Virus record (IMG/VR): IMGVR_UViG_3300045988_183727
Origin: a virus
Strand: one strand, 5' to 3'
Length of the DNA: 64,000 nucleotides
Positions within the stretch are counted from its first letter, which is position 1; each line of letters begins with the position of its first letter. The notes beneath the pieces were generated by a model. That model saw only the letters and a list, made by a program, of their open reading frames with translations. It searched no databases and was not told the origin of the DNA. This document shows positions 8,891 through 59,937 of this stretch, in pieces. Position numbers and translations under genes: made by a program.

Positions 8891-11206
8891 TTGGGAGCTT
8901 TTAATGCCTGCTGTGAAAGGTCGTGTTTCCACATTAAACTAATACTGGCTGAAAAGAAACAGCTTGGCGATTTGATTGCCCAAGCTATTCCCGGTACAGC
9001 ACATTATGACCGTGGTGCAACCGTGAAAGGTGAATATGTAATCGTCTGTTCGCAAGGACATCTTCTTTCTCTGAAGGAGCCTGAGGACTATGATGTCGCG
9101 TTTGGAAAATGGGAGTTGTCTGCCTTGCCGATTTATTTTCCGAACTGGCAAACAAAGGTGAAAGAGTATAACGGGAGAGGCGTGAATCCCAACGAGCGCG
9201 TTTCGCGCATTGGGGAGCTTTTGAAGCAGTGTTCCTGTGTAATCCACGCAGGAGACCCTGATGAAGAGGGGCAGCTTCTTATTGACGAGCTGCTTCGCTG
9301 GCACGGTTATCGTGGACCCGTTTACCGTTTGGCGACGGGCGACACCTCTATCCCTGCGCTGCAGCGTGCGCTCAATAACCTCAAGGACAACCGTCTCTTT
9401 GAGAACATGGGGTGGTCTGCTTACGCACGGAGCGTTGCCGACCTTATGGTTGGTGTGAATATGAGCCGATATTATTCGCTGGTCAACAATGCTTCGCTGA
9501 CAGTTGGACGTGTGCAGTCTCCTACTCTTGGGCTTGTGGTCGAGCGTGATATGCTTATCGAAAACCACGTAAAAACTAAATACTATGAGGTCTCAGCGAA
9601 GACTTCTATTGAGGGTAAGGTCGTTGAGACGAAGTACAGGCCGAAGAAAGATGACCCGCATCTGACTGATGGGCTTATCTTGGATAGACCTTACGCGGAG
9701 AGCAAGTCTGTGATGATTTCCGGAAAACAGTTCTCAGGGGCTGCCGTTACAAAAAAGATTTCCAAAGAACAACCGCCTTTGCCGTTTGATATGCTGGAAT
9801 TGCAGGGCTACTGTTTGAAGAGTTTCGGCTACAAGCTGGACGACACCATGGAAATCACGCAGTCTTTACGCGATAACTACAACGCCATTACATATAACCG
9901 TACTCAGGTGCGATATCTCCCCGAAAACTACTTTGCGGAAGCTCCTGCCACCTCCCGTACTGTTATCGCAAACATAAACACGGTAGGAAAGGGAAATTTC
10001 AACCCTATTCTTGGTATGGACTTCAAGACGAAGGGGCGGTGCTTCGACGATTCTAAAATTGAAGCGCATTTTGGTATCATTCCTCAAAATGTGAGTCTCG
10101 ACCTCAACAAGATGACGGAGCGGGAACGAAACGTATATCTTGCCATTTGTAAGTATTATCTTATCCAGTTCTTTCCGCCCGCTGAGAAGGAAACAACAAA
10201 GCTGGTTGTCCCGCTGCCGGACGGCGCCACTTTAGAGGCGTCCAGCACTGGTGTGCTGAAACCCGGTTATCTCGTGATGATGCGCGAAGGTGTAGATACG
10301 CCCACAGCGTTGAGTATGATACCCGCCGGCAGTTACGGTGCTTTTGTTTCCGACGCTCAGGTCTTAGAGAAGGAAACAAATCCCCCTCCTCGTTACACAC
10401 AGTACACACTGGCGAAGGATATGAGCCGTATTGCCAAGTATGTTACCGACCCATTCATCAAGAGCACTCTGCTGAAGAAAGATGCCGACGTGGAAGAGAA
10501 TAACGGGGCTATCGGCACCAGCGCAACACGGGACCAGATAATCTCCGGTCTCATTTCAAGAGGGTTCTTGCAGGAAAAGGGGAAGTCCCTTATTTCCACT
10601 CCACTTGGACGCGAGTTGTATCGCATTCTCCCCGATTCCCTTCGTGGACCGGACCTCACCGCCTTGTGGTGGGTCATTCAAGAGGAGATACATGAGGGGA
10701 AGGCGACGCCGGAGAAGCTGGAACAAAACGTTCTGGCTATGCTCAAAGATTTCCTGCAGCAACCGCATCCTAAAGTGGACCCCAACATTGTCCCGACAAG
10801 GAAGGGATTCACGCCGATAGGAGTCTGTCCTCGCTGTGGTGGGAACATCATAGAGGGGAAAATGGGCTTTGGTTGTTCCAACTGGAAGAGTGGATGTAAG
10901 TTTACCATCTGGAAAAAGCCAAAACCGACTCTGTTCCAGCACATCACATTCACAGAGAAGGATGTCAAAAACTTTCTCGCTGGAAAGCCTGTCCATAAGA
11001 CGAAGCTGACCAAGAAGGACGGCGGTACATTTGCGGCAGACCTTGTGATGGATGACAGTCAGCGCAGTGATTGGGGCCCGAACTTTACGCTTCAGTTCAA
11101 CAGCACCAAACCCGCAGGAGCCTCCTCGCGCTCTGGTGGTGGTCGTTCCGGTAGTCGCAGTACGTCGCGTGGTTCTTCGCGGAGTCGGCGCTCTGGACGT
11201 CGGTGA
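8891..11206 (+). CDS. topB: DNA topoisomerase III (type IA)
   Basis: N-terminal KLILAEK motif, TOPRIM motif DPDEEGQ, GRVQSPTL motif, C-terminal zinc ribbon CPRCGG...C..C, and an Arg/Ser-rich tail. The start is uncertain: TTG at 8891 in the ORF track, and there is no in-frame ATG before the conserved N-terminus. Confidence 0.85.
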   Translation: MGAFNACCERSCFHIKLILAEKKQLGDLIAQAIPGTAHYDRGATVKGEYVIVCSQGHLLSLKEPEDYDVAFGKWELSALPIYFPNWQTKVKEYNGRGVNPNERVSRIGELLKQCSCVIHAGDPDEEGQLLIDELLRWHGYRGPVYRLATGDTSIPALQRALNNLKDNRLFENMGWSAYARSVADLMVGVNMSRYYSLVNNASLTVGRVQSPTLGLVVERDMLIENHVKTKYYEVSAKTSIEGKVVETKYRPKKDDPHLTDGLILDRPYAESKSVMISGKQFSGAAVTKKISKEQPPLPFDMLELQGYCLKSFGYKLDDTMEITQSLRDNYNAITYNRTQVRYLPENYFAEAPATSRTVIANINTVGKGNFNPILGMDFKTKGRCFDDSKIEAHFGIIPQNVSLDLNKMTERERNVYLAICKYYLIQFFPPAEKETTKLVVPLPDGATLEASSTGVLKPGYLVMMREGVDTPTALSMIPAGSYGAFVSDAQVLEKETNPPPRYTQYTLAKDMSRIAKYVTDPFIKSTLLKKDADVEENNGAIGTSATRDQIISGLISRGFLQEKGKSLISTPLGRELYRILPDSLRGPDLTALWWVIQEEIHEGKATPEKLEQNVLAMLKDFLQQPHPKVDPNIVPTRKGFTPIGVCPRCGGNIIEGKMGFGCSNWKSGCKFTIWKKPKPTLFQHITFTEKDVKNFLAGKPVHKTKLTKKDGGTFAADLVMDDSQRSDWGPNFTLQFNSTKPAGASSRSGGGRSGSRSTSRGSSRSRRSGRR

Positions 11207-19629: not shown

Positions 19630-19717
19630 GGAGAGGTGGCCGAGTGGTTGAAGGCACCGGTCTTGAAAACCGGCGATGCGAAAGCATCCGTGGGTTTGAA
19701 TCCCACTCTCTCCGCCA
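19630..19717 (+). tRNA. tRNA-Ser(TGA), long variable arm, CCA encoded
   Basis: ggagaggtggccgagtggttgaaggc D-arm, anticodon loop cttgaaa, extra arm, T-arm gtgggtttgaatcccac, acceptor 3' strand tctctcc followed by g then cca. Confidence 0.85.
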
Positions 19718-19728
19718 AAAAAAAACAA

Positions 19729-20053
19729 GTACGGACGGTATAACCGGAATTAACGCCTGTGGAGATGCATGGTCGTCGCGGAAGCAGGAATACTCTGTTG
19801 GCTGGCAATCACGTGAGAGGTGACGACCAGCACCTTGGGGGAACTGAATACCTGTGCTGGGTATACACCACCCAGAAATAGCAGGGTACTATACCACAAG
19901 ATGCCGCACGTTGAATTTGAGTGGCGGTATACACCACCCAGAAAAAAACAGGGTACTATACCATCTCATTGCACACTGGCATATACCCGTTATCGTAAAG
20001 GATATGTCACGGTTAGGGGTATACACCACCCCGAAATAACAGGGTTGTATACC
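19729..20053 (+). repeat. R1: ~130-nt conserved structured core plus 3 degenerate 36-nt GTATAC units; abuts the tRNA-Ser 3' end
   Basis: The core gtacggacggtataaccggaattaacgcctgtggagatgcatggtcgtcg...cctgtgctgg recurs at 20125, 50345, 51812 and 53259. Confidence 0.6.
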
Positions 20054-44610: not shown

Positions 44611-45575
44611 TTGTTTTCCTCCTTAAAGTGTTCAAGTCTTTCGGAAAACTTTTGCAGCGCTTTTCTAAACTCAATTTTGCAGGTGGTTGACATGAAATAA
44701 TAGGCGGAAACAATATCTTCTGTCGTAGAGTTTTTCGCATAAAGTCGCATTGTGCTTGGCATCCCCATGAGCCAGTGTAAAGAGACGCCAAAGGCAGCCG
44801 CTATATGCGGCAGAATTCTTTCGTTGCTTGTGGAGCAGGAGGGTCTCACCAACATGATATTCGCCAACTCGTGAATGACATCCTTTTGTTTATCATCTAA
44901 TTCAAAATTGCCTTTTCCGGACTGAATCAATTCATCCAAATCGAGAATATCCTGTCGCTTAAATGAACATCTGTGGGAAAAAACGTACTGTACTCGCGCA
45001 GAAGGGCGCAGCAATAAGCTGCGTTTTTTATCATCCCAGAATTGATGTATCCACATCGTATCAATCATGCCGAGAGCGGACTCTCTTATGCATCCGTCTC
45101 TTATCGTTTCTGGAAAGCTATCTACAAGATTATAGACTTCTTGAACATCTGGCGGTAGGCTGCTGAAAGCTGGAAAGTTTTTATCTCCGAATCGAATCAT
45201 TTCCTCGTAAGATATGTCCAACTCGGCAAGAATCCGAAAAACGATTTGCCAGTTAAATCCCTGCCAGCCTATAAATCGCTGTGTTTCTCCGTTTGTAACG
45301 GGAGTTTTATCAAATAAAAGGGCTGGCAGCTTTTCTTCTGGACAATTAAGCTGTTCGGCTAACCGCAGCTTTTTCATTTCTGCCCTGTATGGCGTGGTGT
45401 CTGTGATAATGTTGTTTACTCTTGCCATGTTGCCTGCATCCTCCGCAATTCTTAATTTGCGGAGGAGCAGGACTATAGAGGTATAGACAGTTGTTGAGAC
45501 GTTTTCTCCGTACCTTATATCGTCTCCAGCTCGTGCCGGCTTTGTAGGATTTGTTCTTTTATAAATAGCACTCAT
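44607..45575 (-). CDS. hypothetical protein (322 aa)
   Basis: ORF track; overlaps its neighbours by 4 nt. Confidence 0.55.
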   Translation of the reverse strand: MSAIYKRTNPTKPARAGDDIRYGENVSTTVYTSIVLLLRKLRIAEDAGNMARVNNIITDTTPYRAEMKKLRLAEQLNCPEEKLPALLFDKTPVTNGETQRFIGWQGFNWQIVFRILAELDISYEEMIRFGDKNFPAFSSLPPDVQEVYNLVDSFPETIRDGCIRESALGMIDTMWIHQFWDDKKRSLLLRPSARVQYVFSHRCSFKRQDILDLDELIQSGKGNFELDDKQKDVIHELANIMLVRPSCSTSNERILPHIAAAFGVSLHWLMGMPSTMRLYAKNSTTEDIVSAYYFMSTTCKIEFRKALQKFSERLEHFKEENK

Positions 45576-47647
45576 TTTCTTGATGCCTCCTTTGCGGTAT
45601 TGTCGGTCTCCTGACCTCCCGCGATTATGGAATCGACCATTTTGCAGGAACCTTTTCCTCTGTTCAAAAGTGTCTTTGCGTCCTCCTTTGCCTGTTCGTA
45701 CTCAGCGGGGTATGCCATCATAAGGGTCATATATCGGTTCCATCCGGATTGTTCTGTGCCGAGGAAATCTCCGGCACCTCTAATGCGGAGGTCCGCCTCT
45801 GCAATTTCAAACCCGTTATTGGTCTGTACCATGGCGTTCAGTCTCTCCATCGCAGCCGGCGTGGGCGACGCGCCTGCTTCCAGCACACAATAGGACTGTA
45901 CGCTGCTCCGCCCTACACGCCCTCTCAACTGGTGCAGACTGGAAAGCCCGAAACGGTCCGCGTTTACAATGACCATCATTGTCGCGGTAGGGACATTTAC
46001 GCCAACCTCCACAACGGTTGTACTGACAAGCACATCTACTTGACCATCCTTGAATCGCGAGAGAATGTCCTCCGTTTCTGTCTTTCCCATCTTGCCTGTT
46101 ACTGTTTCGATGCGGACGCCATACGGCTCCAGAACAGAACGGTATTCTGCGCTGACCTCCTCGACAGACTGTACGCCTTCCAGTTTTTCGCTTCTATCAA
46201 TAAGCGGACAGACAACATAGGTTTGATACCCCTTTTGTTTCTGCAGCAGAATGAAGCGAAAGATTTTTTCTTTACTTGTGGCAATACCGGTAATAACTGG
46301 AAGACGTCCGTCCGGCATCGTTTTAATGGTGTGGAGCTGCACGGTATCCCCATAAATTACCTGAGCCAGACTGCGGGGGATGGGGGTGGCAGACATAGTA
46401 ATAGAATGAACACCGCCTGAAGCCTTTTCGATGAGCGCTGTACGCTGGTCAACGCCAAACTTGTGTTCCTCATCCGTTACGGTTAAGGCGAGATTTTTAT
46501 ACTCCACATCTTCTCCAATGATGGACTGTGTTCCAACAATGAGCTGTGCCTTGCCTTCCTTGATGGCGGCCAAGGCTTTTTTCTTTTCGCTCGTCTTCAA
46601 ATCGCTGCCAAGCCAAACAACACTTACGTCAAACGGTTCCGCCAGAGCAGAGAGGTCCTCGTAGTGCTGACGCGCCAACACCAGCGTTGGAGCCATCACC
46701 GCTGCCTGATACCCATTCTCAGCCATGGTCATCATAAGGCAAAAGGCAACGATGCTCTTTCCACAACCGACATCACCCTGCACAAGCGCGTTGATGCGAT
46801 GCCCGTCTGCTGCAAATTGAGTCATGCTCTCAATCGCGTCCATCTGGTCTTTTGTGAGAGAATAGGGCAGGGACTTCTTAATCTTTTCAATCCAGCCGTT
46901 TGTTTTGACGGAGAATTGGCTACCTTTAGAAATCTTTCGTGCGGCCCATTCGTTAGCCATAGCAAAATATACGAGGTCTTCCTGAAGGAGTCGGGATTGA
47001 CCATCCTTAATATCCTGCTCGGAAACGGGGAAGTGCAGCTTCTTGAGTGAAGTCCAAAGGCTTGAAAGACCTTTTTTGTCGAGGAAATCATTGGGAAGCG
47101 TTTCAATAAGTCCGATAGTTCTGTCGGAAGCCTCCTGAATCTTTTCTCTCAGGTAGGCATCGCTCACGCCTCCGATTTGAGCGTACACAGGACGAATGCC
47201 CGGTGCCTGCCCATAGGCAGGCTCGAAAATCTCCGGTGCCGTCATGGTGTAGTTGTTGTATTTCTCGCTGTATCCGACCTTTCCAGCCACATAAACCTCC
47301 TGCCCTGTGCAAGTGGAAATCTTGCGGAAGAGGTAGTTTTGCCGGAACCATGTAATAACGAGTTTTTCTCCGCTTGGAAGCACCGTGCAGTGTGCGATAA
47401 TCATAGGGACATGAGAGGAAGTCTGCACATAAGAACCCTTATAGCGCAGTTCTTGGCCGAAGGACTTCACTTCGTCTACACGTACAAGACAAGCCTGCTC
47501 CGCACCATCTATGAGATGCGTTGCAAGCTGCCGGTAGTCCTTATAGCTTTTTGGGATATAACGCAGAAGGTCTTCTGCTGAGTGGATACCTTTTTTCTCG
47601 AAACGCTTTTCCTTTTGTGCGTTTACTCCAATGACGGATAGCTTCAT
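45572..47647 (-). CDS. recG: ATP-dependent DNA helicase RecG
   Basis: Walker A GDVGCGKS, DEEHKFGVDQR, RGRVGRS. Start MKLSVIG after ggaggtgag. Confidence 0.85.
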   Translation of the reverse strand: MKLSVIGVNAQKEKRFEKKGIHSAEDLLRYIPKSYKDYRQLATHLIDGAEQACLVRVDEVKSFGQELRYKGSYVQTSSHVPMIIAHCTVLPSGEKLVITWFRQNYLFRKISTCTGQEVYVAGKVGYSEKYNNYTMTAPEIFEPAYGQAPGIRPVYAQIGGVSDAYLREKIQEASDRTIGLIETLPNDFLDKKGLSSLWTSLKKLHFPVSEQDIKDGQSRLLQEDLVYFAMANEWAARKISKGSQFSVKTNGWIEKIKKSLPYSLTKDQMDAIESMTQFAADGHRINALVQGDVGCGKSIVAFCLMMTMAENGYQAAVMAPTLVLARQHYEDLSALAEPFDVSVVWLGSDLKTSEKKKALAAIKEGKAQLIVGTQSIIGEDVEYKNLALTVTDEEHKFGVDQRTALIEKASGGVHSITMSATPIPRSLAQVIYGDTVQLHTIKTMPDGRLPVITGIATSKEKIFRFILLQKQKGYQTYVVCPLIDRSEKLEGVQSVEEVSAEYRSVLEPYGVRIETVTGKMGKTETEDILSRFKDGQVDVLVSTTVVEVGVNVPTATMMVIVNADRFGLSSLHQLRGRVGRSSVQSYCVLEAGASPTPAAMERLNAMVQTNNGFEIAEADLRIRGAGDFLGTEQSGWNRYMTLMMAYPAEYEQAKEDAKTLLNRGKGSCKMVDSIIAGGQETDNTAKEASRK

Positions 47648-47770
47648 ATATGTTCTCACCTCCGTGTGGTGGGAAAATGTTAGGGTGTCGGGGTGCTTTT
47701 CGTGAACTACTCGGCAATAAATCACCGAGGATTCTTGCTTACTTCTTATAAAGAGGGCTTACACACCCTT

Positions 47771-48484: not shown

Positions 48485-48560
48485 GCTGGTGTAGCTCAGT
48501 AGGCAGAGCGGCGCACTCGTAACGCGCAGGTCGTGGGTTCGACCCCCACCGTCAGCTCCA
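48485..48560 (+). tRNA. tRNA-Thr(CGT), CCA encoded
   Basis: Cloverleaf with anticodon loop ctCGTaa and T-loop ttcgacc. Confidence 0.85.
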
Positions 48561-48652
48561 TTCCATACTCATTCTCCTTCAAGTGAAGCCCCCGTGTAAC
48601 AGGTCTTTTGAAAAGTGCTTTCAGCCTCGTTGTGCGGGGGCTTCACGACTAT

Positions 48653-48728
48653 GCTGATGTAGCTCAGTTGGCAGAGCGGCGGATTTGTAAACCGCAGGTC
48701 GGGGGTTCAAGGCCCTCCATCAGCTCCA
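48653..48728 (+). tRNA. tRNA-Thr(TGT), CCA encoded
   Basis: Cloverleaf with anticodon loop ttTGTaa and T-loop ttcaagg. Confidence 0.85.
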
Positions 48729-48763
48729 TTAAAACCATGTGCTTTTGTGGTGTTTTTATATGC

Positions 48764-48840
48764 GCGGATGTCGTCTAATTTGGTGAGACACCAGCCTTCC
48801 AAGCTGGTCATTGCGGGTTCGAGTCCCGTCGTCCGCTCCA
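48764..48840 (+). tRNA. tRNA-Gly(TCC), CCA encoded
   Basis: Perfect anticodon stem ccagc/gctgg, loop ctTCCaa, T-loop ttcgagt. Confidence 0.85.
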
Positions 48841-48867: not shown

Positions 48868-49229
48868 CTTTATCTGCTTATTTGTCCTGTGTTTTTCGGA
48901 CAACATCGGTGAGCGCAAAAGTCGCCTGAAGCGTGAGAAGCGAGCTGCCTGCATCTGTTTTGCGGGCGGTGGCGTGATAAGGGTGAAACTCTGCGCTTTC
49001 AGTAGCCGTAAGCAGGTGAGCAAAAGTCTCTGCGAACGCCTGCATGGTTCGCGGGACAAGGGAAGCCGGAAAAATAAGTAAACGCGGGCCGAGCGCAGAG
49101 GTTGTTGGCGTATTCCAGACGTGGGTGCTGCCTTTTATGCTGTGCTTGTTTGCGTGGGGTCCGGTGTTCTCGCAGTCTGGATGGTTGCTGCGAGAGGTGC
49201 CAAAACTTATTGCGAAAGGACGGAGTTCT

Positions 49230-50288
49230 ATGCCAACTACATTTCAAGCGTTTAAGTATCGCATTTACCCGACTGATGAGCAGGTCGAAATCATTGAAAA
49301 GACTTTCAAGTGCTGCCGGTTTGTGTGGAACCATTTCCTTGAGCGAACCTCCAAAATCTATGACCGTCGGCAGGAAAAGATGACGACCTTCGACTGTATG
49401 AAGGTTCTCACGGAGATGCGGGAGCGCTGGCCTTGGCTTGCGGACTGCGGCTGTACGGCAGAGAGATATGCCATCATTGATTTGTTTGAGGCGCGAAAGG
49501 CGTTCTTCCGCCGCATTAAAGCGGGGGAGAAGCCCGGTTATCCCAAATTTAAGGGCGCGTCCCATCCGACACAGAGTTTTACGACCGCTGGTACTATCTA
49601 TGTGACGGACGATTACATTCAGGTTCCGTTTGGAGGACAGTATCAGAAAATCAACAAGCTCAGGCGAGGGACGGGGCGCCCCATCGAAGGGTCTCCCCGC
49701 GAGGTCACTATTTCTCGGTCTGCTACCGGAAAATACTGGGCATCTGTCTGCTGTAAAGTAGAGCGAGACACGCTGCCTATTGTGGACGGCGAGGTGGGAA
49801 TCAGTCTCGGCCTGAAGGAGTTGGCTATTGACAGCAACGGCGTTCACTATGAGAACCCGAAGCATCTGAGCAAGTCTGCAAAGCGGTTGGCACGTGAGCA
49901 GCGGCGTCTATCCCGCAAGAAGAAGGGCTCTGTCAACTACGAGAAGCAGCGGCGCAAGGTAGCCGGCGTCCATGAGCATATTGCCAATCAGCGCAATGAC
50001 TACCGGCATAAAATCAGCCGTGAACTTGTCAACGCAAACCAGCTTATTGCCGTTGAGAAGGTGGCCGTTAAGCCCTTAGTTGAGGGCAATGAGCAGGCTA
50101 AAAGCATCCTCGATGCCGGCTGGTCTGAACTTACCGGTATGATAAAGTATAAGGCGGACTGGGCTGGACGCACTCTGGTGGACGTAGATACCGCCACCGT
50201 AGCACCGGAAGCCAAGCATGATGAGGCACTGGCACAGGTCGTGCTGTCCGAAGGTCAGCGCATGGCTTCCGAGCAGAAGCCTGCCTAA
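49230..50288 (+). CDS. TnpB-like (IS605 OrfB family) protein, probably nuclease-dead and C-terminally truncated
   Basis: N-terminal FKYRIYPTDEQ. RuvC-I reads GISLGLKELAIDSNG, so Ser replaces the catalytic Asp. RuvC-II IAVEKV. ILDAGWSELTGMIKYKADWAGRTLVDVD. There is no zinc finger or RuvC-III; an unrelated 30-aa tail follows. Confidence 0.75.
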   Translation: MPTTFQAFKYRIYPTDEQVEIIEKTFKCCRFVWNHFLERTSKIYDRRQEKMTTFDCMKVLTEMRERWPWLADCGCTAERYAIIDLFEARKAFFRRIKAGEKPGYPKFKGASHPTQSFTTAGTIYVTDDYIQVPFGGQYQKINKLRRGTGRPIEGSPREVTISRSATGKYWASVCCKVERDTLPIVDGEVGISLGLKELAIDSNGVHYENPKHLSKSAKRLAREQRRLSRKKKGSVNYEKQRRKVAGVHEHIANQRNDYRHKISRELVNANQLIAVEKVAVKPLVEGNEQAKSILDAGWSELTGMIKYKADWAGRTLVDVDTATVAPEAKHDEALAQVVLSEGQRMASEQKPA

Positions 50289-50303: not shown

Positions 50304-50563
50304 GTGTGCAATGATTGCACACATTGCCAAGGAAATAAAAACGAGTACGGACGGTATAGCCGGAATTAACGCCTGTGGAGATGCATGGTCGTCGTGGAAG
50401 CAGGAATACTCTGTTGGCTGGTAGTCACGTGAGAGGTGGCACCAGCGCTTTGGGGAACTGAATACCTGTGCTGGGTATACACCACCCGGAAATAACAGGG
50501 TTGTATACCAATTCATGGCGTCTCCTTTTGGTATACACCACCCGGAAATAACAGGGTTTTACC
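50304..50563 (+). repeat. R3: palindrome gtgtgcaatgattgcacac + ~130-nt core + 2 GTATAC units, directly downstream of the TnpB-like gene
   Basis: Palindrome 50304-50322; core 50345-50474. Confidence 0.6.
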
Positions 50564-51416: not shown

Positions 51417-51730
51417 GCAACACCAATACACCTGAAAAGCCCGTCGTCGTATTCATCAGTAATGACCACGATACCGTCATTGGTGTGATGGTCATTAAGA
51501 ACGACGATGAAAACCTGCAGAACAATCTCGAAATCATTGAGAAAAACTGGGTTGCTGCTCGTAACGAGTTGCTCCAGCGGGCTCGTGAGGACGATAGCAT
51601 TGAAGCAGACGAGGACGAGCTTCACATCGCATTCATCGCACACGAGTTGGGGATGTTCGACGAGCCCTATGAGACTATCGACATCTCCGGCGTTTACTCC
51701 GTCTCCAATGGGAATGTGGACCGCATCTAA
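51413..51730 (+). CDS. hypothetical acidic protein
   Basis: ORF track. Confidence 0.45.
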   Translation: MSNTNTPEKPVVVFISNDHDTVIGVMVIKNDDENLQNNLEIIEKNWVAARNELLQRAREDDSIEADEDELHIAFIAHELGMFDEPYETIDISGVYSVSNGNVDRI

Positions 51731-51792: not shown

Positions 51793-51811
51793 GCTAAATA
51801 CCTAAAAGCAA

Positions 51812-52155
51812 GTACGGACGGTATAACCGGAATTAACGCCTGTGGAGATGCATGGTCATCGTGGAAGCAGGAATGCTCTGTTAGCTGGTTTTCATGTGAG
51901 AGATGATGCCAGCAGCTAAGGGAACTGAATATGCCTGTGTTGGGTGTATGAGGCCCTGAAATGACAGGGGTGTATACCATATAATCTGTCGCTTGAGGAG
52001 ACAGGCGTATAGAGCCCAGAAATAACAGGGTTGTATACCCCTTAACCGCGCTCCAACTTTCAATCCTAAGGTGTATAAGGGCCTGAAATAACGGGGTGAT
52101 ACCTCAGTTATTCCTTTTAGGTACATAACGGGCTAAAACAACAGGGTAGTGTACC
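51812..52155 (+). repeat. R4: core + 4 GTATAC units
   Basis: The core carries compensatory substitutions in its terminal stem (ccagca/tgttgg). Confidence 0.6.
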
Positions 52156-52221: not shown

Positions 52222-52743
52222 ATGGCCTCAAAAAAGATATATAGTTCCCCTGAACTCTATGAGGACAAGTTGGTGCGCGTAATGGCGCGGCTTGGTATCG
52301 AAGAAGGCGACTACAACTACGACTGGAGTCGTCAGGAGTGTTGGGTTGAGTTCAGGTACAAGGGTGAGCTTTACCGCTTCTCCCATAGCGTGAAGAACGC
52401 CCAAGAGCACGGCATCTCCCTGCAGTACGGCTCCGATGCCTTCGCACAGGTCGTGCTTTCTTTGGAAGACCTCGCCCGTATGGTCGAACGTGGCATCTAC
52501 GACCTGTCCACATGGGTGGCCGGAATGAGAGCTCTGCCGGAGCGCTCAAAGTCCTTGGATGCCTGTTTCATTGCTCTCGGCTTTGTAGAGCCGCCCACAT
52601 CCAAAGAAGAAATCACACTCCACTACCGCCGGTTGGCGAAGGTGTATCACCCTGATGCCGGTGGCGATAGCTCCTCATTTGATGCGCTGTCTAACAACTA
52701 TGCGAAATGTATGGAGATTTTCGAGGAGGTTGCCAACAAATAA
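52222..52743 (+). CDS. J-domain (DnaJ-like) protein
   Basis: HPD motif in LAKVYHPDAGGD; RBS gaaaggagg. Confidence 0.65.
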   Translation: MASKKIYSSPELYEDKLVRVMARLGIEEGDYNYDWSRQECWVEFRYKGELYRFSHSVKNAQEHGISLQYGSDAFAQVVLSLEDLARMVERGIYDLSTWVAGMRALPERSKSLDACFIALGFVEPPTSKEEITLHYRRLAKVYHPDAGGDSSSFDALSNNYAKCMEIFEEVANK

Positions 52744-53252
52744 TGTATATGTCTCAGAAAGAGTTCAACGCTATGATGAAGAAAAACCCCCGCCTCCGTG
52801 TTCACGGTGCAAATAACAATACCCGCGAACATCGCTCCAAAGCGAATAAGGCGGCAAAATATAGAAATGTAAAGGTCTACGAGTATGCCGATGGGCTGGC
52901 TTTTTTCGGTAAGCCCCGCAATAATGGTGAAATCCCTATCGCTGTCTTTGACAGCAAGAAGGAGTACCACCGCTGGAAAGAGCTTCAGATTTTGGAGCGC
53001 GGCGGACATATCCACGACCTTCGCCGGCAGGTGCCTTTGACCATCATTACCGAGTTCGAGTATCGTGGTCAGAAGGTCTCCGGTATTACTTACAAAGCCG
53101 ACGCCGTCTATGTGCGCGACGGCAAGTGTGTGGTAGAGGACGTGAAGCCCTTCGATACCACAACGCAGAAGTATCGAACTACAAAGGATTTCAACCTCAA
53201 GTGGAAGCTGCTCAAGGCTGAATATCCTACTTGGTCTTTTGAAATCTATTAA
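52743..53252 (+). CDS. DUF1064-like phage protein
   Basis: FDSKKEYHRWKELQILERGG block; the start overlaps the upstream stop (TAATG). Confidence 0.55.
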   Translation: MYMSQKEFNAMMKKNPRLRVHGANNNTREHRSKANKAAKYRNVKVYEYADGLAFFGKPRNNGEIPIAVFDSKKEYHRWKELQILERGGHIHDLRRQVPLTIITEFEYRGQKVSGITYKADAVYVRDGKCVVEDVKPFDTTTQKYRTTKDFNLKWKLLKAEYPTWSFEIY

Positions 53253-53258
53253 AAACGA

Positions 53259-53533
53259 GTACGGATGGTATAACCGGAATTAACGCCTGTGGAGATGCAT
53301 GGTCGTCGTGGAAGCAGGAATACTCTGTTGGCTGGTAATCATGTGAGAGATGATACCGGCACCTTTGGGGAACTGAATATGCCTGTGTCGGGTATATAGA
53401 ACCCTGAAACGACAGGGTTGTGTATCACAGAATAACTGCGGCAGCGGCATATATGGCTCTGAAACAACAGGGTTGTATACCGCATAAAAAAGGCTATGGT
53501 GTGTAATACCCTGAAATAACAAGGTTGTGTACC
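53259..53533 (+). repeat. R5: core + 3 GTATAC units
   Basis: Terminal stem ccggca/tgtcgg, compensatory relative to R1. Confidence 0.6.
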
Positions 53534-53714: not shown

Positions 53715-53797
53715 GAACTTGACAAAATATCGAATTATAGTAGTATAGAATTATAAGGAAGGACAGTCTAACACAGACTGTCCTTCCGCTTTTTTAT
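53715..53797 (+). promoter_or_regulatory. cassette E (plus strand): promoter + leader hairpin with U-run
   Basis: ttgaca 53719-53724; tagtagtatagaattataagga is shared with cassettes A-D; hairpin aggacagtct aacac agactgtcct followed by gctttttt. Confidence 0.45.
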
Positions 53798-53820: not shown

Positions 53821-54615
53821 TTGGGAAACACAAGCAAAAAGCACGTAAAATGGGGGATTTTCAAGACTGCACTTTTTACGTTCCTGTTCGTCGCAGTATC
53901 CGTTTTCTACTTTCTCTCCACCAACGTGACACTCGCACAGGCCGAAGAACGCTCGAACCACGAATCACCTCCTGCAGCAGAGGTTGCCGCCCAGATGGAC
54001 GACACCAAGCTGTCAGAAGAAGCGCAGCAAGATGTTTTGGTGCTGAAGGAAGGAATCCTCGACCCGCTTTCCGACATCACGGAAGCAGAGAACTCTGAAG
54101 ATGACCCCGACGCCGTGGAGGAAGTACAGGAAGTCGTTCCGACAGTCTGTTCCTACTGCGGCTCTGAGAACCATAGTTCCTCAATCTGTGCAAAGAGGTC
54201 TATCGCCAATGGTGCCTATGGGCGCTGGGTGATTCCGTCTGTTGGCTGTAATGTAGCGGCCTACTCGTGTAACTGGGATGCAGACCAATCCTATGTTCAG
54301 GAAATTACTGACAGTTCCGACAGTGCAGCTTTCTTGACTTGCGGCGGCGTTGGTGTTCTTGCGGACCACAATAACCAAGGTTTCTGTGGACTTTCCAATA
54401 TTTCTGTTGGCGCAAAAGCCTACATGGATTTTGGTGATGGTGCAACTTACTACGAGTGCTATCAGGTTGAATATGGACACAATACCGGCGAAAAGATGCT
54501 CGATGGAAATGGAAACATAATGAGCTACAGCAACTATTCTTCCGGCACCGTGATTTGCTACACCTGCCTTGACCACTGGACCAACATTTACATCACTTAC
54601 TGGACGCCGGTATAA
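53821..54615 (+). CDS. secreted/membrane-anchored sortase-fold-like protein, paralog 1
   Basis: TTG start after aaagggga. Signal/TM helix, an acidic linker, and a C-terminal domain with CSYCGS..H, IPSVG, ADHNNQGF and TVICYTC (a TLxTC-like motif). Confidence 0.5.
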   Translation: MGNTSKKHVKWGIFKTALFTFLFVAVSVFYFLSTNVTLAQAEERSNHESPPAAEVAAQMDDTKLSEEAQQDVLVLKEGILDPLSDITEAENSEDDPDAVEEVQEVVPTVCSYCGSENHSSSICAKRSIANGAYGRWVIPSVGCNVAAYSCNWDADQSYVQEITDSSDSAAFLTCGGVGVLADHNNQGFCGLSNISVGAKAYMDFGDGATYYECYQVEYGHNTGEKMLDGNGNIMSYSNYSSGTVICYTCLDHWTNIYITYWTPV

Positions 54616-54654: not shown

Positions 54655-55455
54655 GTGAAAACGAAATTCAAAATCCCTCGGTGGGCACTCTTCACCGTTA
54701 TCATTCTGTCCTTTATCGGTGGTCTCTTTGCCATCTCCATGCTGCCTGCTTTCGCATCACGTGAAAGCTCTCCGCCTTTGGCAGTAGCAGAAGCCGCGCA
54801 GAACGAGGAAAAGGACGCAAATTCTGATGCTCAGACTCCCGAAGCAAACGAGACATCCGATGAGCATGGAAGCACTGAAACTCCCGTAGAGGACGAGCCT
54901 CAGGCAGACGATGCTGTCGTCGTTGAAGTGACTCCCTCCGAAGAGCCTGTTCAGGAAACTCCAACCACCTGTTCCTACTGCGGCAGCGTAGAACACACCA
55001 AAGACTACTGTGCCGTCCGTGCCGTGGACAATGGCGCCATTGGACGGCTCCGGATTCCCTCTGTCGGTGTTGACGTGGCTGTTTACGACGTCACTTGGTA
55101 CTCTCTGCAGCACACCACCGAAGGCGATAACTACGCGCAGGCCGTTACAGATGCATGGGACAGCGCCGCACAAATCGTCTATCTCGGCCAGACCGTTATT
55201 GGCGACCATAATAATCAGGGCTTCTCCGCCATCAACAACTGTGCCGAGGGCACTTACTCCTACATCGACATAGGCGACTCTGTCCTGACCTATGTTTGTA
55301 CCGGCATCCAGCATGGTCGCAACCCCGGTGGCTATCTTACCGGAGCCGATGGCGATAGCATCTATACCTCTTACTTCAATCCCAATGGTCTGACGCTGTA
55401 TACCTGTCTCGACCACAACTTCAATGTTGCCCTTGTGACATTCCAGCCTGCTTAG
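54655..55455 (+). CDS. sortase-fold-like protein, paralog 2
   Basis: Same architecture; GDHNNQGF and TLYTC motifs. Confidence 0.55.
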   Translation: MKTKFKIPRWALFTVIILSFIGGLFAISMLPAFASRESSPPLAVAEAAQNEEKDANSDAQTPEANETSDEHGSTETPVEDEPQADDAVVVEVTPSEEPVQETPTTCSYCGSVEHTKDYCAVRAVDNGAIGRLRIPSVGVDVAVYDVTWYSLQHTTEGDNYAQAVTDAWDSAAQIVYLGQTVIGDHNNQGFSAINNCAEGTYSYIDIGDSVLTYVCTGIQHGRNPGGYLTGADGDSIYTSYFNPNGLTLYTCLDHNFNVALVTFQPA

Positions 55456-55489
55456 GCTATTTAAGATTTGATGTGGGAAACCCACAAAA

Positions 55490-55659
55490 AGTCTTATAGC
55501 CACAGCCACACCGACGTGTGTAAGTCTTCTCTCAGGTAGAGGCGACGGATGCACCTGCGGGTTTTCCCAGCTCGCAGCTCTGCCAAGCATACGCCGAGGT
55601 AAGGGAGACATTACCGCCTCCTCCGGAGGCGAGACACTACTGAAAGGAGATGAGCGCAC
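55490..55659 (+). ncRNA. putative IscB omegaRNA / HEARO RNA region
   Basis: 170-nt non-coding, GC-rich, hairpin-dense sequence between the left inverted repeat and the iscB start. Confidence 0.45.
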
Positions 55660-57144
55660 ATGACGATGGTCTATGTGCAAAATAAAGACGGTAAACCTTT
55701 GATGCCGACAACTCGCTATTGTTATGTGCGCCTTCTCCTGAAGGAGAAGAAAGCACGAGTTGTTTGCACTACCCCGTTTACCATCCAGTTGAACTATGAT
55801 ACCCCAGACATCACCCAAGACTTGATTCTTGGCATCGACCCCGGCAGAACGAACATTGGTGTCGCTGTCGTCAAGGAGGACGGCCAATGCGTGTTCTCCG
55901 CACATCTGGAGACGCGCAATAAGGACGTACCTCTTCTGATGCAGAAGCGTGCCGGTTTCCGTAAGCAGCATCGCACGTTGGACCGGCGCCGCAAGCGCCA
56001 GCGTCGTGCGAAGGCTGCTGGGACCACCGTTGCCGGGGGTTCTGTCGAGAGATTGCTCCCCGGCTATGAGAAGCCCATTGTGTGCCACCATATCCGCAAT
56101 AAGGAGGCGCGGTTCAATAACCGTAGCCGCCCTGTGGGATGGTTGACACCTACAGCAAATCACCTGCTGCAAACCCACATCAACCTGATTGCAAAGGTTG
56201 CGAAGTTCTTACCTATCACGAAAGTGGTGGTGGAGCTGAACCGCTTTGCATTCATGGCGATGGATAATCCCAATATCCGTCGGTGGGAGTACCAGCAGGG
56301 GCCGTTGTACGGACTGGGTTCCGTGGAGGATGCGGTGTACGCACAGCAGGATGGACATTGCCTGTTCTGCAAGAAGCCCATTGACCATTACCATCATGTT
56401 GTTCCACGCCACAAGGGTGGAAGTGAGACGCTGGCTAACCGGTGTGGGCTTTGTGCGAAGCATCACGACCTCGTCCATAAGGACAAGGCGTGGGCGGATA
56501 AGCTGGTCACACGCAAGGAAGGTATGAATAAAAAGTACCACGCCTTGAGTGTTCTGAACCAGATTATCCCGCATCTCATGGAGTATCTCGGAGGCGAGAC
56601 TCTCTACGATGTCTATGCCACGGATGGTAAGTCCACCAAGGGCTTCCGCGTTGCCAAGAACGTGCCGAAAGAACATTACACGGATGCCTACTGTATCGCC
56701 TGTTCCATTTTGGATGCGAATACGAAGGTCTCCACACCTGCCGAACCCTTTAAGCTGAAGCAGTTCCGTCGGCACGACCGGCAATCCTGCATCCGCCAAA
56801 TGGTTGACCGGAAGTACCTTCTGGATGGCAAGGTCGTTGCAGCAAACCGGCATAAGGCCATTGAGCAAAAGTCCGATAGCCTGCAGGAGTTCCGTGAGGC
56901 TTACGGCGATGCTGCGGTATCGCAGCTCACCGTGAAACCTCACTCGCCCCAGTACAAGGACATGACTCGTATCATGCCGGGGGCGGTGATGGATTTCGGT
57001 GGCGCTGTCGGGATTCTTCAGGGGTCGGAAGGCTTCCATAACGGCAAGCCGGACTACTATAAATCTACGAAAGGAGAACGGGTTTTAACGAGGAGATGTG
57101 CGCTTCTCGCACAGAACGCAGGCATGGTTTTCATTCCCGCCTGA
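55660..57144 (+). CDS. iscB: IscB RNA-guided endonuclease (HNH + split RuvC), apparently intact
   Basis: PLMP motif (KPLMPTTRY), Ruv[11 protein letters not shown], Arg-rich bridge, HNH motifs (C..C...HH..N..C..C..H), RuvC-II VVVELN, RuvC-III HYTDAY. Confidence 0.85.
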
Positions 57145-57199
57145 AAACAAAGTTTTGTGGGTTTCCCACATCAAATCTTAAATATCCGGTGCAGCTTTA

Positions 57200-57973
57200 A
57201 TGAAAACAAAGAAAATTTCCCGCCGCGCCGTTACGCTGGCTGCCTTTTTGCTGGTAAGTGCATCATCTTTACATATGGCTTGTGCAGAGGCTTCGGTGCC
57301 TTTCGATTACTTTACTGATGACCTCTCTGTGTCCACTGACGCCGTTGCGAAGGAAGATAAATACCGGCCTCCTGAGTGGTTCACAAAAGAAAATGTTGTA
57401 AGTGAAGTGGACTCAGACACGCCTCCGGGGGAGACTCCTACCCCTGCGGGCGAACCTTCTGTGGCGACCCCCGTGCCTGAGCCCGCACCGGAAACCGCAG
57501 CAGCCTGCAGCTATTGCGGCAGCGCAGGGCACTCGCAGAATAGGTGTGCCGTTTACGCTGTCGAACAGCGAGGTGCCGTTGGGCGTTGGTCTATCCCTTC
57601 TATTGGAATAGATGTCGCTTGCTTCACCTATGTGCTTGGAAGCGATTCCTTCGAGTACGGACAGGCAATTTGTGACGCTGCCGATAGTGCCGGCTACAGT
57701 GCGTATGGGAGCCAGTATCTCATTGCAGACCACAACTATCAGGGCTTTTCTGCCATAGCCAACTGCGCGGTCGGTGCGGTGGGATATATGGATTACGGAA
57801 ACAGTCGAACAGAATATGTTTGTACTGGGGTGGAGTATGGGCACAATGAAGGCACGGAACTGACTGATAATGACGGAAACGATGTTGCGTACAACAACAG
57901 TGGAGGAATTACCCTTTACACCTGTTACAACGGCTGGCAAAACGTCGTCATAGCGTATTTTACTCCGGTTTAA
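57200..57973 (+). CDS. sortase-fold-like protein, paralog 3
   Basis: ADHNYQGF and TLYTC motifs. Confidence 0.55.
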   Translation: MKTKKISRRAVTLAAFLLVSASSLHMACAEASVPFDYFTDDLSVSTDAVAKEDKYRPPEWFTKENVVSEVDSDTPPGETPTPAGEPSVATPVPEPAPETAAACSYCGSAGHSQNRCAVYAVEQRGAVGRWSIPSIGIDVACFTYVLGSDSFEYGQAICDAADSAGYSAYGSQYLIADHNYQGFSAIANCAVGAVGYMDYGNSRTEYVCTGVEYGHNEGTELTDNDGNDVAYNNSGGITLYTCYNGWQNVVIAYFTPV

Positions 57974-58359: not shown

Positions 58360-59937
58360 ATGCCTACAGAAAGAAAGAAGAAAACAACAAAAGAAGAAAA
58401 CGCAAAAAATAACTCAACAAAAAACACAATAAAAAAACCAAGAAACTCAACAAGTAACACGAAAAGCAAGAAAGAAAGCAAGTCTCTTTTGGGGTTAAAG
58501 GACCTGATGGAAGATACGTCTCCAGAAAAAGTCGTCGGCTGTTATGTTCGTGTATCTACCGATGCACAGGCGGAGCAGGGATATTCTATACCTGACCAAA
58601 CAGCCAAATTGCAGGCCTTTTGTACCGTAAAAGGCTGGGAGAACGCGAAATTCTACACGGACCCCGGATTCAGCGGCAGCAACTTAAATCGACCGGCAAT
58701 GCAGGAAATGATATCCGATGCGATGGAAGGGAAGCTGAAGGCGGTTGTCGTCTTCAAGCTGGACCGTCTCTCCAGAAGTCAGAAGGATACTCTTTATTTA
58801 ATTGAGGATGTGTTTCTTCCGAACGAAGTGGATTTTGTAAGCATTTCCGAGGCCCTTGACACTACCACTCCATATGGACGAGCGATGATAGGTATTTTGA
58901 GCGTCTTCGCCCAGTTGGAACGCGAGAATATCTATATGCGAACCCGTATTGGAATGATGGGTCGTGTAAGCGCGGGGTATTGGCGTGGCGGCGGAAACGT
59001 TCCGTTTGGCTATGATTATGACAAGACAAGCAAATCCCTTATCCCAAATGCTGACGCGCCAAAAGTGCCACAGGCTTACGACCTCTACATCAAGGGCTAT
59101 AGTTGCCAGAAAATTGCGGATATGCTCGGACTAAGTAGCGAACAGCTCGTGAGGAATATTCTCACCAAGCGCACATATTGCGGCTACATCAACTACAAAG
59201 GCAAAGACTACAAGGGTTTCCACGAGCCTTTGATTGATGAAGAGCGGTTCATGCTCGTGGCTGCAGAAATGGAACGCCGTGGGAAGGAAAACCTCGCAGT
59301 CTGCGGCAACAATAAATATTATCTTCTTACCGGGCTTGTTTTCTGCGGAGATTGTGGCGCCAGAATGCGGTACATGAAGTGGGGGAAGTATATCCGTATC
59401 GTCTGCTACTCGCACACGTGTAAAAAGAACATGGTTAAGGACCCCGATTGTCCAAACAAGGGCGTTCGCGCAGATGAACTTGAGAAGGTTGTTATCTCAA
59501 AACTTTTTGACATTGGTACTGACATTTCTCTCGACGATTTTGACGACACCCACGTGCCTGCAAGTGCAGCAGAAATCCTGACGAACCGGATAGATGAGCT
59601 GAAGGAGTCTCTCAGGCGCCTATATGGGCTCTATGCCGACATCGGAGACCCCATGGTGTACGAGCGCATTGAGGATGTGCGAGGACAGCTCCACGTATTG
59701 CAGAGACAGCTTGCAAGCGAGGAAACGCAGAAACTCAAGGAAGAGCACATCAACTACGTCCGTGAGAAAATTCAGACTATTGGAGACCTCTGGCCCCATC
59801 TTACTCCTATGGAGCGCCAAACTCTTGTTCGTGATTGTGTTGAGAAGGTTATTTTGCATCACAACGGACGTGTTGAGGTTTACTACACTTTCCATACTGA
59901 GAAAGATAGTAAAATTCTCAAAAGGAAAGGCGCATAA
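58360..59937 (+). CDS. large serine recombinase (phage integrase type)
   Basis: YVRVSTDAQ with the catalytic Ser, KLDRLSRS, a recombinase domain and a C-terminal zinc ribbon. The Lys-rich 49-aa N-terminal extension may not be translated; an alternative ATG lies at 58507. Confidence 0.8.
   Translation: MPTERKKKTTKEENAKNNSTKNTIKKPRNSTSNTKSKKESKSLLGLKDLMEDTSPEKVVGCYVRVSTDAQAEQGYSIPDQTAKLQAFCTVKGWENAKFYTDPGFSGSNLNRPAMQEMISDAMEGKLKAVVVFKLDRLSRSQKDTLYLIEDVFLPNEVDFVSISEALDTTTPYGRAMIGILSVFAQLERENIYMRTRIGMMGRVSAGYWRGGGNVPFGYDYDKTSKSLIPNADAPKVPQAYDLYIKGYSCQKIADMLGLSSEQLVRNILTKRTYCGYINYKGKDYKGFHEPLIDEERFMLVAAEMERRGKENLAVCGNNKYYLLTGLVFCGDCGARMRYMKWGKYIRIVCYSHTCKKNMVKDPDCPNKGVRADELEKVVISKLFDIGTDISLDDFDDTHVPASAAEILTNRIDELKESLRRLYGLYADIGDPMVYERIEDVRGQLHVLQRQLASEETQKLKEEHINYVREKIQTIGDLWPHLTPMERQTLVRDCVEKVILHHNGRVEVYYTFHTEKDSKILKRKGA

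Follow-up and report, generated by a model that had tools for sequence, protein, structure and literature searches.

Cas9 is regarded as a descendant of IscB, and genome editing with IscB most often employs OgeuIscB. The OgeuIscB-omegaRNA complex, from a human gut metagenome (PDB 7XHT, 7UTN, 8CSZ), has an RNA scaffold of 206 nucleotides (nt) that starts with a guide adaptor hairpin (nt 1-43), the outer part of which (U15-U29) is disordered in the structure; a guide of 16-17 nt directly precedes scaffold nucleotide G1, the target-adjacent motif (TAM) is NNRR, and mismatches at TAM-proximal positions 1-14 abolish cleavage (PMC9640706). Canonical ISC elements encoding IscB have neither terminal inverted repeats nor target duplications and occupy GT|GG-type 4-bp sites (PMC4810608), and in reviews and surveys through 2026 IscB is assigned to IS200/IS605-type elements that likewise lack inverted repeats and duplications (PMC4810608, PMC10691335, PMC13565253). 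In the literature we searched, we found no description of the natural element boundaries of OgeuIscB. Here we analyze an OgeuIscB-like element in a 64,000-nt stretch of DNA, referred to as the window, which makes up the opening 64 kb of an ENA metagenome contig 118 kb long (IMG/VR virus record IMGVR_UViG_3300045988_183727). We consider it likely that positions 55455-57187 are an intact, non-autonomous element carrying IscB and its omegaRNA, mobilized in trans in the manner of ISL3 elements and spread additionally by homing. Its parts and immediate neighbors are as follows.

55455-57187, plus strand: whole mobile element (1733 bp, GGC to TCC); these are the limits of its similarity to independent copies that have other flanks.
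55455-55489, plus strand: left terminal inverted repeat, GGC plus 32 nt; the initial 21 nt (GGCTATTTAAGATTTGATGTG) are conserved throughout the family.
57153-57187, minus strand: right terminal inverted repeat, 32 nt plus TCC (GGA on the minus strand).
55455-55659, plus strand: omegaRNA scaffold of about 205 nt, running up to the ribosome-binding site and start codon of iscB.
55455-55501, plus strand: guide adaptor hairpin (helices 1-2 of the RNAalifold consensus), formed by the left inverted repeat and its partner strand AGUCUUAUAGCC.
55660-57144, plus strand: iscB gene (494 aa), intact, the sole long open reading frame (ORF) between the arms.
55439-55454, plus strand: predicted 16-nt omegaRNA guide CATTCCAGCCTGCTTA, in flanking DNA outside the mobile unit, positioned by analogy with OgeuIscB.
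54655-55455, plus strand: upstream paralog, with stop codon TAG at 55453-55455; the final base of the stop is the first G of the element.
57200-57973, plus strand: downstream paralog, whose ribosome-binding site lacks its first 5 nt when filled and empty alleles are compared.

Protein and RNA both belong to a well-known family, the OgeuIscB clade, in which an OgeuIscB-type query matches at least 1054 protein clusters (90% identity) at E <= 1e-100. The window protein matches Pfam RRXRR, the N-terminal region of IscB, over residues 4-214 (E 2.4e-49), and the solved OgeuIscB structures (7XHT, 7UTN) align to residues 1-489 (E 1e-196), with full-length identity to the OgeuIscB-type PDB sequence of 60% and a common domain order. 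D60, E192, H246, H339 and D342 align with OgeuIscB catalytic residues of RuvC-I, RuvC-II, HNH and RuvC-III, and the CxxC...HH...N...CxxHH motif is intact. A first-pass annotation, made from the DNA letters, had credited the protein with a PLMP domain, RuvC-I/II/III and a complete HNH zinc finger; this is borne out, with all five of the catalytic residues checked conserved, and judged by its residues the protein is intact and catalytically complete. By analogy with OgeuIscB, we predict that its cleavage is RNA-guided and TAM-dependent.

The identical protein is encoded on further contigs with other flanks, and the IMG/VR and metagenome collections contain many copies of the element that are 85-95% identical; a BLAST search of GenBank phages with the element gave no match. 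The suggestion that copies with different flanks be sought was thus productive, yielding 36 distinct left flanks, in related mobile-element contigs from the gut, and 36 distinct right flanks. GGC directly precedes TATTTAAG in 36/36 of the former and YCC opens 30/36 of the latter. Because these bases (55455-55457 and 57185-57187 in the window) are conserved at the flank junctions, we define the element as 55455-57187, with repeats GGCTATTTAAGATTTGATGTG.. and GGRTATTTAAGATTTGATGTG.. at its ends. The 32-bp repeats previously noted at 55458-55489 and 57153-57184 are real, but the outer boundary drawn from them was wrong, and the true ends lie 3 nt further out.

Comparison of empty and filled alleles establishes that the insertion is real. 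Of three paralogous genes, the second and third are separated by the element; these two are adjacent in 24 related contigs without it, as expected from the earlier proposal of an insertion into a paralog array. The empty site in these relatives reads ..CCTGCTTA-AAGGG-GGTGCAGCTTTAATG (..GCTTA-AAGGG-GGTGCAG..), and the filled site (site W) reads ..CCTGCTTA[GGC..TCC]GGTGCAG.. in the window and in at least three more contigs (L012, L042 and L096; L numbers designate loci). These 24 empty alleles, a comparison that the first-pass annotation had recommended, helped to place the ends. The upstream paralog ends in GCTTAAAGG (stop TAA) or GCTTGAAGG (stop TGA) in empty alleles, and its stop becomes TAG because the first G of the element is used; in the same alleles the downstream paralog has AAGGGGG or AAGGAGG as its ribosome-binding site. 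We dropped the idea that the element entered an existing palindrome, since empty sites contain none, and that of a palindromic GG|CC target, which is not present in empty sites. We also discarded 1723-bp Logan contigs as a sign of multiple copies, as the inverted repeat breaks the k=31 assembly graph.

The arms at the ends of the element are exact reverse complements over 32 nt each; the 32-mer has no other occurrence in the window, with 0 chance matches expected, and was not found in any of 185,579 representative genomes. The hairpin GTGGG-AAA/TTT-CCCAC is present in both arms, in agreement with the first-pass annotation. The perfection of the repeat, although exact in the window, is no family trait: among 28 distinct complete copies the 32-nt perfect run occurs in the window copy only, and the commonest perfect run is 18 nt (10/28). 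The inner part of the right end is GTGGGAAAACAC in most copies versus GTGGGTTTCCCAC in the window copy, and this replacement accounts for the perfect repeat. Most likely, the right-end hairpin was converted by its left-end counterpart.

The left repeat and the guide adaptor hairpin of the omegaRNA are one feature. In the hairpin at 55455-55501 the repeat supplies the 5' strand and loop, and compensatory changes across lineages are found in 7/12 pairs. The 205 nt from GGC to the start codon have a mean column identity of 93% in 26 copies and an RNAalifold consensus fold of eight helices. A covariance model built from these 26 family copies matches 55455-55662 in the window, beginning at the first base of the element, and matches L194, L200, L201, L205 and L211 over its full length (E 5e-10 to 6e-20), in each case upstream of an IscB 63-91% identical to the OgeuIscB-type PDB sequence. 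In these five lineages the model match begins no more than 2 nt from the first base of the left repeat. In a 14-sequence alignment, which was fitted to the RNA model and so favors structure somewhat, 96.2% of cells are paired and 23/47 pairs show compensatory changes, compared with 11.6 +/- 1.9 after shuffling and at most 7 with partners slid. The first-pass annotation had placed a structured region upstream of iscB, separate from the repeat; the covariance model bears out the presence of an omegaRNA, but not its separateness, as the RNA starts at 55455.

The RNA also resembles that of OgeuIscB in length, and loci with an IscB 72-91% identical to the Ogeu sequence are among those matched by the window-family RNA model. 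The two scaffolds share the guide adaptor hairpin at the 5' end, a long-range stem and an inner hairpin; by eye, the UCCC loop of the window inner hairpin could pair with a downstream GGGA, as in the OgeuIscB pseudoknot (PMC9640706). The window family is a different subfamily, with end GGCTATTT.. where the OgeuIscB side has GGCTCTTCC... The recommended check against HEARO and omegaRNA models was run with Rfam HEARO (RF02033), which gave 17.7 bits, locally at 55551-55583, against a gathering threshold of 83. This failure says nothing about the window RNA, because HEARO also finds no match at loci whose IscB is 63-87% identical to OgeuIscB and hence fails to cover this clade. The omegaRNA is probably made by read-through from upstream genes on the same strand.

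The family is mobile. Besides their different flanks, copies show presence/absence polymorphism at the same sites among near-identical contigs. Directly outside GGC..YCC, abutting 8-9-bp direct repeats are found in 8/28 distinct complete copies, versus 0.04 expected from shuffled flank pairs, and when one-mismatch cases are included a duplication is present at about 10 independent sites. For six sites an empty allele holds a single copy of the repeat (L057, AACAAAAG; L068, ATGTATATG; L179, CGTCGTCG; L180, GCTTCCGAG; L183, TGCTCAGAA; L009, GATTTCAGG), and at three of these sites (52743-52751, 51442-51449 and 50265-50273) the empty allele is that of the window. The only common feature of the targets is a purine before the left end (33/36 flanks). 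Two modes of movement were dropped: TA duplication as in IS630, since TA lies within the repeat and the flanks disagree, and movement of the IS607 or large-serine-recombinase type, which the duplications exclude; the recombinase gene at 58360-59937 is unlinked to other copies.

These features bear on whether the element is a canonical ISC or IS200/IS605-type IscB element that moves as single-stranded DNA by a Y1 TnpA supplied in trans, with the repeats being two similar subterminal hairpins. IscB elements described to date are of this type (PMC4810608, PMC10691335), and the window family shares with them a short non-autonomous format (1.3-1.7 kb, IscB only), a 5' guide RNA and small terminal hairpins (Kapitonov et al. 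2016). The loop polarity of the two hairpins is the same on the top strand in most copies (GTGGGAAACCCAC, GTGGGAAAACAC), as expected for strand-specific hairpin recognition, and the same window contains a TnpB element (49044-50288). However, the repeats reach the very ends of the element, with 18-21 nt outside the hairpin perfectly inverted in most copies, the 8-9-bp duplications are verified against empty sites, and there is no common 4-5-nt target beyond the preceding purine; the family thus differs from ISC and IS200/IS605 elements in its 18-35-nt inverted repeats, its duplications and its lack of a fixed target. A Y1 (HUH) TnpA was found neither in the element nor in the 64-kb window. We regard this explanation as very unlikely. 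The first-pass annotation had itself remarked that perfect terminal inverted repeats are atypical for IS200/IS605, and we agree; its filing of the element as an IS200/IS605-type OMEGA/HEARO element is not supported, as inverted-repeat ends and 8-9-bp duplications are both foreign to IS200/IS605 and ISC.

Alternatively, transposition may have been lost, with spread by IscB homing and ordinary recombination and with the repeat playing an RNA-level role, such as pairing between the mRNA 3' end and the 5' hairpin of the omegaRNA. The filled site W in several contigs beside 24 empty ones would fit this explanation, and the lack of a duplication and the 5-bp deletion at that site fit repair over transposition. 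Chimeric flanks at L193 and L123 point the same way, as does a weak match of the RNA model (18 bits) to the minus strand of the right end. Homing cannot, however, create new sites or duplications, and the family has 36 different left flanks in unrelated contexts, clean duplications at about 10 sites and an insertion in a bacterial chromosome (L211, at gmk/rpoZ). On balance we find this explanation improbable.

Relatives from other lineages of the clade point to the kind of enzyme that may be involved in transposition. Four were sampled.

L194: 72% identical to the OgeuIscB-type PDB sequence; ends GGCTCTTCCAACTT.., 23-nt repeat; duplication ATATTAGG.
L201: 87% identical to the same sequence; ends GGCTCTTCCAACTT.., 22/22; duplication TTTTTGAG.
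L205: 70% identical; ends GGGTATTTGCG.., 22/22; duplication GTTTAATA.
L211: 63% identical, in a bacterial chromosome between gmk and rpoZ; ends GGCTAATTCAAAT.. / GGTTATTTAAGAT.., 17/22 by eye; duplication CTAATTTT.

The L211 ends (GGCTAATTCAAATATGTGGTTG versus GGTTATTTAAGATTTGTGGTTG) were set by eye, after the automatically found ends were shifted 3 nt outward. Ends starting GGCTCTTCC.. or GGGTAT.. are present in three of the four lineages, the fourth being window-like, and the duplication is 8 bp in all four, compared with 8 or 9 bp in the window family. Inverted-repeat ends accompanied by 8-9-bp duplications are therefore present in every OgeuIscB-clade lineage sampled, with ISL3-like termini in most. 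Among published ISL3 members, ISArsp7 has ends GGCTCTTCGCGG.. and ISPst2 ends GGGTATCCGG.., each with 8-bp direct repeats (PMC6305408), and a Microcystis ISL3 element with GGCTCTTCG and 8-nt repeats mobilizes miniature elements (PMC11448079); inverted repeats starting GGCTCTTC or GGGTAT and 8-bp direct repeats are thus common to ISL3 and to the relatives, and non-autonomous ISL3 forms, both miniature and passenger-carrying, are known (PMC6305408, PMC11448079). The relatives' ends match the published ones over 6-8 terminal bases, with an internal TT..TGGT pattern common to both, and repeats of 15-39 bp starting GGCTCTT or GGGTAT, as in ISL3, are found in L194, L201 and L205. The window-family end GGCTATTTAAG.. 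is a variant, in a comparison that covered the published ends of three ISL3 members only. Because of these ISL3-like ends and duplications, we infer mobilization in trans by an ISL3-type DDE transposase, an assignment based on end similarity and duplication length only. Differences from known ISL3 elements are the lack of an ISL3 transposase gene, the RNA-guided nuclease as cargo, a guide RNA that begins in the left repeat and, in the window family, the variant end and the 8- or 9-bp duplications.

Several observations weigh against an ISL3-mobilized, homing element. IS6/IS26-type and IS1595-type elements also have a GG start and an 8-bp duplication, and the window-family end GGCTATTT is unlike the classic GGCTCTT, with duplications that are not strictly 8 bp. 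No DDE or Y1 transposase was found among the 25 strongest of the 38 Pfam families matched by 61 window ORFs, and none among the 31 ORF families beside other copies. No autonomous partner was found in the viral collection, where the pattern GGCTCTTCCAACTT..TGGTT matched the L194 element only, and plasmids searched with the left ends of the window and L194 elements gave no meaningful match. The window copy has no target duplication and has a 5-bp target deletion when filled and empty alleles are compared, and more than half of complete copies, the window copy included, lack a clean duplication; recombination between copies (L193, L123) accounts for some of these cases, but not for site W. We found no promoter for the omegaRNA. 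Finally, the NNRR enrichment described below could reflect insertion just upstream of purine-rich ribosome-binding sites.

We also weighed whether the mover is an enzyme of another family with GG-starting ends and 8-9-bp duplications (of the IS6/IS26, IS1595, IS256 or IS1 type), or an unknown enzyme, in place of ISL3. The frequent 9-bp duplications and the GGCTATTT end of the window family would suit this possibility, as would the fact that an ISL3 DDE transposase (DDE_Tnp_ISL3) was found neither in cis, nor in the window, nor adjoining other copies; other 18-mer matches provided no autonomous partner, being chance matches or solo ends only. The GGCTCTTCC/GGGTAT termini and strictly 8-bp duplications of the relatives argue for ISL3, as they match published ISL3 ends (PMC6305408, PMC11448079), and we rate another mover as unlikely, if less so than loss of transposition.

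The RuvC domain has the same fold as DDE transposases. It is conceivable, if highly improbable in our estimation, that there is no separate transposase and that IscB-omegaRNA, or a host or phage enzyme recognizing the adaptor hairpin DNA, joins the ends in a staggered cut from which the 8-9-bp duplication results; if true, the RNA-guided-nuclease element would be an autonomous transposon.

The filled and empty alleles also speak to the homing component of the ISL3-and-homing model. Empty alleles L018-L026 contain the exact 16-mer CATTCCAGCCTGCTTA followed by AAGG, which fits NNRR, whereas GGCT, which does not fit, comes after the 16-mer in the filled window allele. At 11/14 definable target sites the guide match has NNRR after it, versus a background of 25-27% (p ~1e-4), and the same holds in L201, L205 and L211. 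The second copy of the duplication, with 8-9 matching bases, is too short for cleavage, because positions 1-14 must match. By analogy with OgeuIscB, these findings support a putative role in homing between copies of the host mobile genome that reside together. Empty alleles L027-L033 and L038-L040 differ from the guide on the TAM-proximal side, with GCTTG for GCTTA and CTTGCATA for CCTGCTTA; such changes would block cleavage, and these alleles could be escape variants.

We propose that new insertions would be made in trans by an ISL3-family or similar DDE transposase encoded elsewhere, and that an IS200/IS605 Y1 transposase would not be their mover. After insertion, the 16 nt of left flank, duplicated target included, would become the guide. 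IscB-omegaRNA would then cut element-free copies of the host mobile genome at sites combining a guide match with NNRR, and recombinational repair from the filled copy would spread the element, while the filled allele would be spared, having GGCT after the guide match.

OMEGA nucleases in symmetrical inverted ends with a DDE mechanism have been described for TnpB (IS630-linked and others) and for Fanzors (PMC10691335, PMC13565253); those cases have a 3' guide RNA and usually a transposase gene alongside, in contrast to the IscB, 5' RNA and absence of a transposase in cis seen here. Unlike for TnpB, we found no link between IscB and DDE transposons in the literature (PMC10691335), and no prior description of inverted-repeat ends in this clade that act as the guide adaptor hairpin and are accompanied by 8-9-bp duplications. 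Whether this is the first IscB clade to have exchanged the IS200/IS605 machinery for ISL3-type DDE ends strikes us as an evenly balanced question; in such an exchange, one DNA segment would be both a transposase binding site and an RNA hairpin. If a DDE transposase moves these elements, bacterial RNA-guided nucleases would have joined DDE transposons for IscB as they have for TnpB, the accepted rationale (repair of scarless single-strand excision) would not apply, and homing among co-resident phage or plasmid genomes would be the likelier benefit. The outer part of the adaptor hairpin, corresponding to the disordered U15-U29 of OgeuIscB, may in that case be conserved for the transposase and not for the nuclease, which bears on RNA minimization. 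The many pairs of filled and empty alleles make homing directly testable.

Rearranged copies provide a view of events after insertion. Comparison with L065, L173 and the window shows that the left and right flanks of L193 and of L123 stem from different insertion sites, which indicates that recombination between copies of the element reshuffles the host genome. Filler of 6-7 nt is present beside the right end in L009 and L017, and there is an adjacent deletion in L065; together with the chimeric flanks, these point to recombination and repair after insertion. A 47-bp remnant consisting of the left hairpin and the last bases of the right end occurs at L035:1690-1736 (also L012:457, L063, L083 and L096:4524), at the place of window 53254/53693. 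L158:2712-2750 is a palindromic mini-copy flanked by ACGACTGG, L060:6753-7077 is a 325-bp copy with an internal deletion, at a site where a full copy also occurs, and at L144:9183 a right-end stub is joined to the left flank via CACA microhomology. The remnants at L035, L158, L060 and L144 are decay products of the element. In L048:338-355, L061, L144:1895 and L179, the right-end hairpin is replaced by ..ATGAAAGGAGAAATACAATGAAAAACACATCAAATC.., which supplies a ribosome-binding site and an ATG that face outward; through these the host gene downstream may regain translation.

Several copies can occur in a single host genome, with at least four loci deriving from contig IMGVR_UViG_3300045988_183936. 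Positions ~14410 (minus strand), 51442-51449 and 52743-52751 are empty in the window and are occupied by IscB elements of the same family in L016, L179 and L068. The TnpB (OrfB_IS605) gene at 49044-50288 lies 5 kb upstream of the IscB element; in L180, L181, L186 and L192 a family IscB element sits within the last codons of this gene, with duplication GCTTCCGAG, at a site (50265-50273) that is empty in the window.

With the 21-mer end as query, the only match was a solo copy in Dysosmobacter segnis, whose interior is unrelated and which the RNA model does not match. Solo GGCTATTTAAGATTTGATGTG sequences are present at L166:7043-7063 (Dysosmobacter segnis NZ_JACOQI010000012), L052:2497-2517 and about 30 metagenome loci, with three different left flanks and no RNA-model match. 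They sit downstream of a gene for a 3090-aa surface protein whose C-terminus resembles S-layer-homology repeats by eye. These loci hint at an Oscillospiraceae host.

The three paralogs around the element (53821-54615, 54655-55455 and 57200-57973) have a signal-peptide-like N-terminus, as judged by eye, and a conserved CSYCGS..H motif. They were initially called sortase-like; their paralogy stands, but the label derives solely from Pfam Sortase matches of two paralogs, which at E 0.0035-0.005 do not reach the curated cut-off, and none of the three matched a PHROG family. Other genes of the host element encode a 1587-aa adhesin with T-Q ester and SpaA domains (37-4800), a topoisomerase (8891-11206), a RecG-like helicase (45572-47725) and a large serine recombinase (58360-59937), and relatives of the host element carry a Rep3 initiator. 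The host element may be plasmid-like or resemble an integrative and conjugative element, more than a typical phage, despite its IMG/VR relatives. Rfam applied to the whole window detected tRNAs only, four in number (19630-19714 and 48485-48837). An intergenic repeat of 170-240 bp, with copies 83-92% identical, recurs at 19717-19896, 50336-50510, 51803-52039 and 53250-53481, one copy lying directly after the TnpB gene, and the intergenic region at ~53719-53750 resembles a sigma-70 promoter by eye (TTGACA..TATAGAAT).

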